DNA of 64,000 nt from Candidatus Bathyarchaeota archaeon (GCA_963715865.1 OY970280.1:2080001-2144000), one strand, 5' to 3'. Shown: positions 61,115-63,844, counted from the stretch's first letter. A program made the numbers and translations. The notes: generated by a model from the letters alone, not told the origin.

Positions 61115-61236
61115 GCCGGGGTGGCAGAGCGGTTAATGCGCCGGCCTCGAGATCTTAGAAAAGAGGGCTAAGCCAGAAGGCAAGTTAGCCGGTGGGCCTT
61201 GTGCTCGCAGGGGTTCGAGTCCCTTCCCCGGCGCCA
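61115..61236 (+). tRNA. tRNA-Ser(CGA) with 35-nt intron at 37/38 (61152-61186)
   Basis: GCCGGGG acceptor, CCGGC-CT-CGA-G/intron/A-GCCGG, long variable arm, GGTTCGAGTCC T-arm, CCA. Confidence 0.92.
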
Positions 61237-63151
61237 CTTCAATGTTAGCATGAATACTCGAATCGCGCGTTATTTGCTTTTTTTCTTTCATTTGTCTTTT
61301 TTTCTTGACGTAGACTACTGCTGCTGCAAAAGTTGCGACTAAGAGAATTAACAAGTAAACGTTTTGAGCTGACAATCCGCTGCCGCCAGTTGCTTTATTA
61401 TTGTTCTCGGGTGGTTGAGTGGTGTTATTTGGAGTTTGGACTTTCAAATCTTTGAAAATTACGGCGCTGTCTACGTTATTTGTTATTAACATTGTCATTT
61501 CATTGCTGTTCAGTGTATCGTATGGAGTTGCCATGCTTTCTATGAGAGTCCCATCTGAGTTGTATAAATTAGCGGTTATTCCGTTCTCTGATATGCTTGC
61601 TGTAACCTTATACCAAGTGTTTTCTGTTATGCTCTCAGTAGCGTTCATGAAAGCGGTGTTGCTTCCATTATCTTGTCTTATGGTAGACACGTCATCATCG
61701 TTTAGTCCTCTAACGTTTAAGCTGTAATTTCCGTTATTATTTTGAAGGATAAAGCAAAACTGATTGTTTATTGTTTGATTAAAATCGTCTGGCAATCTTA
61801 GAGGCGCCATATCTGTCGGCACATTTATTGGTACTGTTATTGTCTTCTCAGGTATCTCTATTGTTTTTGTTTGCCTGTTTCTTCCAGTGATTATTGTAAG
61901 TTCGCTTGCTGGTATTGTTACTGTCTTTGTTGGAACGTTCGATACTGTATGCCCTGCTTGTAATACAATGAAATCGTAGCTAAATGAAACATTTGCCCCC
62001 AAGGAGATACTGAGAAAATCGTTAACCCCCTGCATTGGGCGAGTTACATAAGCTGCAGCGCTTGCTTGCCCATATATGTAGTTATAGTCGTCAGTCTGAA
62101 ACTGAACAAATGATGCAGGCCCGACAAAAACTGTTAGTGTTTCGCTGTCGGCACCAGCATAATTTGAAGCACCGCTCCAGCTTGTTGTAATGTAGTATGT
62201 GCCTGCTGAGGTGAAGTTCCAAGTCATCATGTACCTGCCAAAATCATCTGTAACTGTTCTGAAGTAATCATAGGAAGATCCGGCACGACTACTACTAACG
62301 TATATAGAGACGTTTTCCCCTGAGTACGGTGGTGAAATTGAGCCTGAAATCGTAAGAGCCCGGGTATTTTCTTCAACGCTGGATGGTCCTTGGGACAGAT
62401 TTACGGTTATGGAAGAAGGGAGTAAAGAAGTGTCCAAACTTGATGAAACCTGTGCTGGTGATGATTTCTCAGTGTTCTCAAGGGAAATAATCACAGGTAT
62501 CGCGTTAGCAAGGAGTTCAGATTGGTCACCAACCTTCCAGTCCGCTTCAGGGGTGGCTTCAGCTGTCCAATAAGTTTTGTTGTTGTACTCGAAACTGGTG
62601 GGCGTCAACAACGAAGTGTGATAGATGGGCGTGTAGGGTAGGTAAACTCCAACATTCATGTGACCGGGGTTTATCCCTGTGTAGTGAATTAAAACAACAT
62701 CTAAGCCTCCTGCCTTCATGATGGAAGCCGCAAGTAGTGACAGCGCAACGCAATCTCCAGAATTGTCTACAAGGGTTTCAATAGGATATTTGGGGCTGCT
62801 AATATTATATGGGATTTGATGAACCAGCGTTAACACGGCATCAGCAAACTGTTCGTTGCTGTAGGGCAGATTGCGAGTAATTTTTTGAATGCTCTCCGCG
62901 ATGGGTTCGACAGCTTGAGGCGTTACAAATTTTGCGTAATCACTGTCGCAATTTACTGTATGGCTTATGTTACTATAATAGTCGTAGAGTGAAGGCGGTT
63001 CAGAAACATACAACTTTTGGTTGAGGAGCCCGTACTGAGCTTGAAAAATATAGGTTTTTTCGTAGGTGCCTGCTATAGAGGTAGGTGTTATGAAAACTAG
63101 TAACAAAATGCTAATGAGAAGGACGCTGGCTTTCAGGTACTTAAAACTCAT
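61133..63151 (-). CDS. Secreted, membrane-anchored transglutaminase-like (Cys-His) protein with Ig-like domains; 3' end uncertain
   Basis: N-terminal hydrophobic signal, IPY...P.ETL..NSGDC...SLL..H catalytic pattern, Ser/Thr/Asn-rich beta domains, C-terminal TM plus KKKR. Confidence 0.8.
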   Translation of the reverse strand: MSFKYLKASVLLISILLLVFITPTSIAGTYEKTYIFQAQYGLLNQKLYVSEPPSLYDYYSNISHTVNCDSDYAKFVTPQAVEPIAESIQKITRNLPYSNEQFADAVLTLVHQIPYNISSPKYPIETLVDNSGDCVALSLLAASIMKAGGLDVVLIHYTGINPGHMNVGVYLPYTPIYHTSLLTPTSFEYNNKTYWTAEATPEADWKVGDQSELLANAIPVIISLENTEKSSPAQVSSSLDTSLLPSSITVNLSQGPSSVEENTRALTISGSISPPYSGENVSIYVSSSRAGSSYDYFRTVTDDFGRYMMTWNFTSAGTYYITTSWSGASNYAGADSETLTVFVGPASFVQFQTDDYNYIYGQASAAAYVTRPMQGVNDFLSISLGANVSFSYDFIVLQAGHTVSNVPTKTVTIPASELTIITGRNRQTKTIEIPEKTITVPINVPTDMAPLRLPDDFNQTINNQFCFILQNNNGNYSLNVRGLNDDDVSTIRQDNGSNTAFMNATESITENTWYKVTASISENGITANLYNSDGTLIESMATPYDTLNSNEMTMLITNNVDSAVIFKDLKVQTPNNTTQPPENNNKATGGSGLSAQNVYLLILLVATFAAAVVYVKKKRQMKEKKQITRDSSIHANIEVAPGKGLEPLRAQGPPANLPSGLALFSKISRPAH

Positions 63152-63309
63152 ACAAACCCAGCAAGTACTTTTTTTTACTATCATCCGAGCTTTGAATAAA
63201 GCGCGTTATATATTTTTTGCGTTTCTGCCCCTTTTATTTATTTTTATGTTTCGGTCAACAGTCTCTGAATGGAATTAATTTAATATAGTCGAGAAGGATA
63301 GTCCTCTGT

Positions 63310-63348
63310 GGTAGTTTCCGTATTTAACCTACCTTAAAAAACCGGTGA
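63310..63348 (+). promoter_or_regulatory. Candidate preQ1-I (preQ0/preQ1) riboswitch
   Basis: P1 GGTAG/CTACC, loop starting T and ending AAC, tail TTAAAAAAC, loop CCG complementary to CGG overlapping SD GGTGA; directly upstream of queT. Confidence 0.65.
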
Positions 63349-63352
63349 GAAA

Positions 63353-63844
63353 ATGAAACTAAATACCAAAAAACTGACAATTATCGCTGTTTTTGCATCC
63401 TTATACACGGTCGGAGTAGTCTTCTTGGCACCAATAAGCTTCGGTGTCTATCAAGTAAGGTTAGCCGATGCTATGCTTCCACTATCGATGATTTTTGGAG
63501 TCCCAGGTGCATTGGGTTTTAGCTTGGGCTGCATAGTCTCTAACGTTTATGGCGGGCTTGGAATAATTGATGTTGTTGGTGGTGCAGCCGCAAATCTTGT
63601 TGCCTGCACTCTAGCTTGGTATATAGGCGGTAAGGGGCGAGGTATTCAACGATTTCTGGGAAGTATTGTAGAAACAGGAATCGTCACTTTGATAGTTGGA
63701 GGATATCTTTCACTGATATTTCAGGTTCCTGTGGAGGTCGGTCTTTTGGGAGTACTTGTTGGGTCTACAATAGCGATAAACGTTATAGGGTTTCCAATAG
63801 AAGAAGTAATTCGGCGAAGCAAAATTTTTAGAAAATACAGCTAA
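63353..63844 (+). CDS. queT: QueT family queuosine-precursor transporter
   Basis: AVFASLY...APISFGVYQVRLADA, G..LGCIVSN..GGLG..DVVGG. Confidence 0.9.
   Translation: MKLNTKKLTIIAVFASLYTVGVVFLAPISFGVYQVRLADAMLPLSMIFGVPGALGFSLGCIVSNVYGGLGIIDVVGGAAANLVACTLAWYIGGKGRGIQRFLGSIVETGIVTLIVGGYLSLIFQVPVEVGLLGVLVGSTIAINVIGFPIEEVIRRSKIFRKYS

Follow-up and report, generated by a model that had tools for sequence, protein, structure and literature searches.

Class I preQ1 riboswitches are small H-type pseudoknots (PMC11625349), described as types I to III. In type I, UU follows the 5′ strand of P1, UC precedes its 3′ strand and the tail carries a conserved C; type II has AC before the 3′ strand; and type III combines UU with AC and places the Shine-Dalgarno sequence (SD) inside P2 (PMC11625349). 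Contacts to the ligand come from a specificity C, from the U that opens the loop, from the A that ends the tail and from the G-C pair on top of P1 (PMC10622847), with the specificity C pairing to it as C15 in E. coli, C17 in Carnobacterium and C15 in Thermoanaerobacter (PMC10622847, PMC8752633). Type I uses U6, U7, A30 and C31 to read two stacked preQ1 molecules, the second being read by U7 and C31 (PMC8752633). Affinity for preQ0 differs between subtypes: in the E. coli type III element it is 133-fold lower than for preQ1, and the Thermoanaerobacter type II element binds preQ0 at 35 nM (PMC10622847). Archaea use preQ0, which archaeal TGT inserts and whose salvage is likely (PMC5372724). Archaea go unmentioned in the text of PMC11625349 and PMC10622847, and no archaeal preQ1 or preQ0 riboswitch was found in the literature that we searched.

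We analysed a 64,000-nt stretch of a Candidatus Bathyarchaeota archaeon (GCA_963715865.1, OY970280.1:2080001-2144000; hereafter the window), in which the original prediction had placed a preQ1-I-type riboswitch in front of queT. Direct reading of the sequence recovered each of the bases and elements listed there at its coordinates, giving the following layout.

63279-63287 (+): TATA-like box TTTAATATA, read directly; its function as the queT promoter is inferred
63310-63314 (+): P1 5′ strand GGUAG, pairing with 63329-63333; the predicted transcription start site (TSS) is at or just before 63310
63315-63328 (+): 14-nt loop TTTCCGTATTTAAC, with T first and AAC last
63315-63317 (+): L1, UUU (UUU in 36 of 37 variants, UUC in L143)
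63318-63320 (+): P2 5′ strand CCG, complementary to 63343-63345 and the same in all 37 variants
63321-63327 (+): L2, UAUUUAA, holding the only freely variable positions of the motif
63328 (+): candidate specificity C, preceded by A and adjoining the P1 3′ strand; invariant
63329-63333 (+): P1 3′ strand CUACC, the complement of GGUAG
63334-63342 (+): L3 tail TTAAAAAAC (RNA UUAAAAAAC), six A and then an invariant C next to P2
63343-63345 (+): P2 3′ strand CGG, invariant and complementary to the loop CCG
63344-63348 (+): Shine-Dalgarno GGUGA, its first two G inside P2, 4 nt before the ATG
63353-63844 (+): queT, S component of an ECF transporter for 7-deazaguanine precursors (PF06177, E 9e-24)

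The PF06177 match bears out the naming of the gene as QueT, present as a single copy in the 2.35-Mb genome. The gene upstream of queT is divergently oriented, placing the element in a promoter and leader and not in a 3′ UTR. The 3′ end of the genome's own 16S rRNA (GGAUCACCUCCU) is complementary to GGUGA (duplex -7.6 kcal/mol), and the Shine-Dalgarno reading therefore holds. Elsewhere in the window, a tRNA with an intron (119 nt, 46.6 bits; 61115-61233, +) lies antisense to the last ~33 codons of a surface-protein ORF (61133-63184, -), which encodes 683 aa with Big_3_5 and LamG-like matches.

We term the window-type queT leader element type A. It fits the description of an H-type pseudoknot (P1 of 4-6 bp, short L1, P2 of 3-4 bp, A-rich L3), and the bases expected to contact a ligand (C63328, U63315, the A run 63336-63341 and the pair G63314-C63329) are all invariant. 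It sits directly 5′ of queT, where its CGG shares GG with the SD GGUGA. The class I layout that had been claimed for the locus (P1, loop, A-rich tail and P2) is thus complete, and is kept in 37 distinct variants.

Types II and III (T. tengcongensis and B. subtilis; E. coli yhhQ) resemble type A in plan. Type A has in common with them an H-type pseudoknot of ~35-40 nt in which G-C tops P1, AC precedes the P1 3′ strand, L3 is rich in A and the 3′ strand of the 3-bp P2 falls within the SD, together with control of a 7-deazaguanine transporter; with type III it also shares UU after the P1 5′ strand. The E. coli 36-mer is built of P1 AUUGGG, loop UU-CCC-UCA-C, P1′ CCCAAU, a linker ending in AAAAA, and GG. 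The corresponding parts of type A are GGUAG, UUU-CCG-UAUUUAA-C, CUACC, the tail UUAAAAAAC and CGG. The differences are a loop of 14 nt against 9 in type III, with an L2 of 7-8 nt that is longer than in the bacterial examples compared (as the original prediction had conceded in calling the loop slightly long); P2 of CCG/CGG in place of CCU/AGG; a C (or CC) that parts the A run from P2, whereas in E. coli type III the ligand-contacting A adjoins P2 directly; and G-C instead of U-A as the pair next to the pocket. Type A is archaeal whereas types II and III are bacterial, and type III prefers preQ1 where an archaeal switch should see preQ0.

Type I, represented by the two-ligand element of Carnobacterium antarcticum, resembles type A at other points, namely UU after P1 and A-C before the P2 3′ strand. 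U63315 and U63316 are counterparts of type I U6/U7 and of E. coli type III U7/U8 (PMC8752633, PMC10622847), A63341-C63342 matches type I A30-C31 (PMC8752633), and C63328 is, by comparison, the counterpart of the bacterial specificity C. Of the six key bases in type I, type A thereby has invariant counterparts for five (U6, U7, C17, A30 and C31); the sixth, U16, is an A. Its tail UAAAAAAC is also the consensus tail of the Rfam preQ1-I family, RF00522. Type I, however, always has UC before the P1 3′ strand where type A has AC, continues after the tail with CUA where type A has CGG, and has a different loop, of 12 nt (UUCG..C.UC).

A search with the Rfam preQ1-I model by Infernal had been proposed as a check, and it failed to support the assignment. 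No Rfam family matched, either at the gathering threshold (39 bits for RF00522) or at E ≤ 10, whether the query was the whole window, a stretch of 151 nt or of 45 nt, or any of 16 related loci. Across the window's own genome, RF00522 returned 13 weak matches elsewhere and none at the element (150 candidates scored per genome), and in five bacterial genomes the same, insensitive scan (again 150 candidates per genome) found no match. Two controls qualify this silence. Run on 151 nt as before, RF00522 likewise misses the validated E. coli type III yhhQ element at E ≤ 10, and it gives 20.5 bits (E 0.026), far below 39, to a queT leader from Lachnospiraceae (L189) that has type I features. The printed RF00522 consensus is type-I-like (loop UUCG.AA.C.UC, tail AUAAAAAACUAAGG), and because the model covers type-I-like sequences only, its silence does not exclude the class. 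Type A would then lie outside the type-I-like sequence family, with class membership not excluded, and we set RF00522 aside as a criterion of membership. Type A is absent from Rfam 15.

A covariance model that we built from type A gives 60.9 bits for the window and 49-57 bits for copies in a second genus, and it retrieved neither a bacterial type I leader nor the type III leader of E. coli. A match in L190 (578-601) falls on what looks, by its frame, like coding sequence and is most likely due to chance. As to the bacterial elements themselves, 5414 of the 5426 complete E. coli genomes carry the yhhQ leader (L166, 401-436), with no RefSeq annotation there. Two Clostridia queT leaders (L189, 1996-2043, -; and L190) have type I features, with loop UUCGAGACCUUC and tail AAAACUAAAGGAG; L190, which precedes the queT at G489:C66:14864-15301, carries an insertion of ~45 nt in L3.

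Judged by comparison of leaders, type A is a real element and not a chance arrangement. It precedes all QueT orthologues down to about 58-60% protein identity. Within the genus it is found in 19 of 120 genomes, and in 19 of the 19 whose QueT is 60-96% identical to the window protein; it recurs in another genus of that family (G294, G266 and G579, with the MAG behind L096 carrying a motif identical to that of G579) and on 42 metagenome contigs from peat and wetland, which were selected by QueT protein alone and not by leader. In every orthologous leader examined across these two genera and 42 contigs the motif is nearly invariant, as had been required of a genuine switch. Mean pairwise identity is 0.90 for the motif, compared with 0.47 for the spacer between TATA box and P1, 0.33 farther upstream and 0.73 for the first 87 nt of the coding sequence.

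Among the 37 distinct variants, P1 GUAG/CUAC, UUUCCG, the AAC before the P1 3′ strand and the succession of A run, C and CGG are essentially fixed, with the A run and final tail C invariant. UUUCCG is followed by UA in all copies but that of G266 (AA), and L2 in relatives conforms to UA-N-W-UAA, of 6-8 nt. Only two positions of L2, the outer pair of P1 and the base that follows CGG vary freely.

The element is also exclusive to its position. There is one copy in the window's genome, and a pattern scan of 185,579 species (one genome each) found true copies only in Bathyarchaeia MAGs, each of them preceding a queT-like start; the other matches lack P1 complementarity or are plainly unrelated sequence (L112). 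Recent horizontal transfer from bacteria was considered and set aside: the strict pattern has no true bacterial copy in the 185,579 species genomes, and the nearest relatives of QueT are archaeal. Two of the matches, L067 (CAWHDI010000026.1) and L115 (DATHCJ010000026.1), come from MAGs labelled Chloroflexia and Limnocylindrales. Both hold the Bathyarchaeia type A queT locus, with leaders like those of the genus, and that of L115 matches L050 of G079, a genome within the Bathyarchaeia genus; mislabelling, or mis-binning of the contigs, is the probable cause.

Of 61 relatives, 49 have a QueT homologue, and the leaders are of two types. The second, which we term type B, is a GC-rich queT/queC leader pseudoknot of Bathyarchaeia, seen in 23 loci and running GGCGG-GUGAG-N-CUCCYAC-CCGUU-CCGCC-(A-rich)-AUAAAACCCGGG-AGUAGGGAGG. 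Compensatory changes are present in it (GGCGC/GCGCC in two loci, and paired loop-tail changes in L025), and it is absent from Rfam and from the papers searched. Both types lie at the start of queT mRNAs in Bathyarchaeia and have in common the loop CCGU and the tail AUAAAAC-C-CGG. Type B is larger (~70 nt, with P1 GGCGG/CCGCC), carries an insert of 15-22 nt (GUGAG...CUCCYAC) pairing with its SD, GGGAGG, and has only UU before the P1 3′ strand, without a C at the specificity position; its pocket, if related to that of type A, is built differently. The type B pattern has no match in the window's genome, and the window element falls short of the type B description save for CCGU and the AAAACC(C)GG tail.

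The genomic settings of the two leaders also differ. Type B precedes queT-queC operons in preQ0-making genomes, whereas the queT behind type A stands alone, mostly in genomes that lack QueC. In type B genomes queC follows ~40-80 nt 3′ of queT (for example G012 C18, 43969-44448 and 44524-45132). Two genomes, G029 and G110, carry both leader types. The type B leader of G029 precedes queT-queC (L163, G029:C1:388500-389300) and that of G110 a small membrane ORF and a divergent queC (L164, G110:C17:45300-45700); in both, type A stands before a lone queT.

Conservation upstream of type A gives an indication of where its RNA begins. In 43 of 47 unique related leaders a YTWAWATA 8-mer ends 22-29 nt 5′ of P1, with a mode of 27-28; in the window the spacing from the TATA-like 8-mer to P1 is 22 nt. 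The TATA-to-TSS spacing in archaea is usually 22-27 nt, and for this reason we infer, from TATA spacing only, that P1 lies at or within about 5 nt of the 5′ end of the mRNA, the RNA starting 0-6 nt before it. For the window the inferred TSS is ~G63310, with no transcript data behind it; one metatranscriptome run matched a small part of a wider stretch but no part of the gene.

We estimated the chance level with a descriptor of the published class I layout (a 5-bp stem, a U...AC loop of 10-15 nt, a tail rich in A and three or more nt able to pair with the loop). Counting both strands, the 2.35-Mb genome has seven matches to it, whereas shuffled sequence gives ~1.2 per strand, and one of the seven is directly 5′ of the sole queT. 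The descriptor was written after the candidate had been seen, and the figure is rough; the main weight is therefore placed on the comparative data.

Covariation in the queT leaders, another check that had been suggested, is almost absent because the core helices do not vary. In 20 distinct motif variants P1 GUAG is invariant but for one U-to-C change (L153), leaving a C-A mismatch in mid P1. Three of the five P1 pairs never vary, and the outer pair is G-C in 15 variants, A-U in three and unpaired in two or three, so that the only compensatory change in P1 is G-C to A-U (three variants). The P2 core CCG/CGG shows no variation. At its edge, the third loop U faces the base after CGG: 14 variants have a G there, 10 an A, 11 a U and one a C, and one further variant has C-G. 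A fourth standard P2 pair, U-G wobble included, is available in 25 of the 37 variants and mismatched in 12 (pairs were counted by script, as MAFFT misaligns the CC(C)GG tail). Covariation is thus too thin to prove the fold, whose support comes from conservation, position and the match to a known architecture, and the invariant helices could equally mean a constraint on primary sequence.

One such constraint would be a protein-binding site, either a DNA operator formed by the inverted repeat GGTAG-N14-CTACC over the TSS or the target of an RNA-binding protein. Archaeal repressors often bind over the TSS. The arms of the repeat are invariant and their sole double change, AGTAG/CTACT, leaves both the DNA palindrome and the RNA stem intact, so that covariation cannot tell this explanation from the RNA reading. 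The asymmetric loop and tail are nevertheless as invariant as the arms, where dimer operators usually tolerate changes in the spacer, and the U-G, U-A and C-G combinations at the fourth P2 position, the wobble in particular, would be meaningful only in RNA. Every class I ligand-contact base is present, the motif is tied to the start-codon region with its CGG overlapping the SD, and the queT flanks (ORFs of the window locus only) suggest no dedicated regulator. We regard a protein site as very unlikely.

A second such alternative, that the leader is conserved for mRNA stability or as a translation enhancer, for example, and merely looks like a riboswitch while sensing no small molecule, draws on the lack of experimental data and on the weakness of the helices. 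Both are short. P1 amounts to -3.0 kcal/mol and is missing from the unconstrained minimum-free-energy fold (z-score 0.71), which uses the start of the coding sequence and is not conserved; for a pseudoknot dependent on its ligand this z-score carries no information. P2 has only three pairs in the window genome, a weak point that the original prediction had rightly named, and its duplex with the loop comes to -3.3 kcal/mol, compared with -4.2 to -5.3 kcal/mol in relatives that have the fourth pair. Weak folding without ligand is, however, typical of class I aptamers (PMC11625349). The rarity of the descriptor in the genome, the exclusive link to queT, the match at all pocket positions and the parallel with the type B queT/queC leader further speak against coincidence, to which we give only the slightest credence.

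The gene content of the window's genome bears on what an RNA switch at this place would sense. QueC was not found there (only PP-loop matches of 20-26 bits) and QueD/PTPS gave no match, whereas arcTGT (283 bits) is present together with a second TGT-like gene. Two EcfT genes (124 bits) lie away from queT. Since QueC and QueD are missing and arcTGT is present, preQ0 import is required, and the earlier idea of preQ0 salvage fits this set of genes, EcfT among them. QueC is missing from 16 of the 19 type A genomes, compared with 11 of the 101 other genomes of the genus; these counts run over related genomes and may reflect a single event. An organism that imports preQ0 would be a natural setting for feedback on the importer.

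We therefore favour, as the probable reading, a preQ0-responsive translational OFF switch of class I architecture, for which fold, ligand and direction of control are inferred. With transcription starting at about 63310, itself an inference, the first ~36-40 nt of the queT mRNA (63310-63345) would fold into a small H-type pseudoknot aptamer. When enough 7-deazaguanine base is in the cell, most likely preQ0 as the substrate of arcTGT, the ligand would stack between P1 and P2. By analogy with the bacterial structures, it would form Watson-Crick pairs with C63328, U63315 and the last tail A would give edge contacts to it, and U63316 and C63342 might form a second contact pair. Bound ligand would lock P2 (CCG 63318-63320 with CGG 63343-63345), which would take up the first two G of the SD GGUGA and reduce translation of the transporter; without ligand, P2 would be open and queT translated. 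In about two-thirds of relatives (CCCGGRUUGAAU..AUG) no good SD adjoins P2, and many of these have an in-frame UUG or AUG right after CCCGGR. There P2 may act on the start-codon region.

The same fold and OFF logic might serve another ligand, be it preQ1, guanine, archaeosine base, queuine or another 7-deazapurine from neighbouring bacteria. The choice of ligand in class I depends on subtype, as the 133-fold and 35 nM values of types III and II illustrate, and the longer L2 and the extra C before P2 set type A apart from every solved pocket; that G029 and G110 carry both leader types could mean two effectors. On the other side, preQ0 is what archaeal TGT inserts (PMC5372724), and with QueC and QueD absent and arcTGT kept the level of preQ0 matters. 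The C, U and A contacts also suit a guanine-like Watson-Crick face, as in preQ0. A ligand other than preQ0 is accordingly unlikely in our estimate, though it cannot be put as low as the protein site.

If the preQ0-responsive OFF switch is true, it is a type of riboswitch unreported in archaea. Should preQ0 be bound, one of the smallest aptamer folds would work in Archaea on a precursor of archaeosine and not of queuosine, and an RNA of ~36 nt would offer a test case for translational riboswitch control in these organisms. Bacterial types I-III and archaeal types A and B would then form a natural series for the evolution of pocket and expression platform. The biology implied is that of a peat Bathyarchaeia lineage in which preQ0 synthesis has been lost and the base is supplied by neighbours.

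A wider reading, which we hold to be possible but doubtful, makes types A and B two branches of one archaeal 7-deazaguanine riboswitch family that shares ancestry with bacterial preQ1-I and senses preQ0. On these terms type A would have kept the bacterial-style pocket, including the U-U and A-C pairs of bases that read two stacked ligands in type I, and the archaeon would sense preQ0, possibly as two molecules, by an RNA of ~36 nt at the mRNA 5′ end, with translation controlled through the SD. Cells like those of G029 would run two versions of the aptamer, one for salvage and one for the queT-queC operon. Were this true, a classic bacterial riboswitch class would extend to Archaea with a different natural ligand.

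Sequence similarity between the two leaders is slight but exceeds chance: the type A model gives weak matches (7-12 bits) on eight type B leaders, where ~0.3 would be expected. One metagenomic type A copy (L154, 504-548) has a long, type-B-like linker CCAAAAAUAAAA, and its 17-nt L3 (UCCCAAAAAUAAAAAAC) resembles the type B linker; L154 may be an evolutionary bridge between the two.

In a QueT tree (unrooted, with long branches flagged), the type A proteins form one group with support of 85/90. The group is sister to the QueT of another family and stands among the type-B-led QueTs of other families, far from the type B QueTs of its own genus. We interpret this as an origin of type A on a second copy of queT, followed in most carriers by loss of the queT-queC operon with its type B leader. 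The closest QueT to the type A clade (L015; G054:C3, upstream of 86369), at 58% identity and from another family, has neither leader. All that precedes it is a GGCGG-N8-CCGCC hairpin at a distance of ~100 nt, possibly the remnant of a type B leader.
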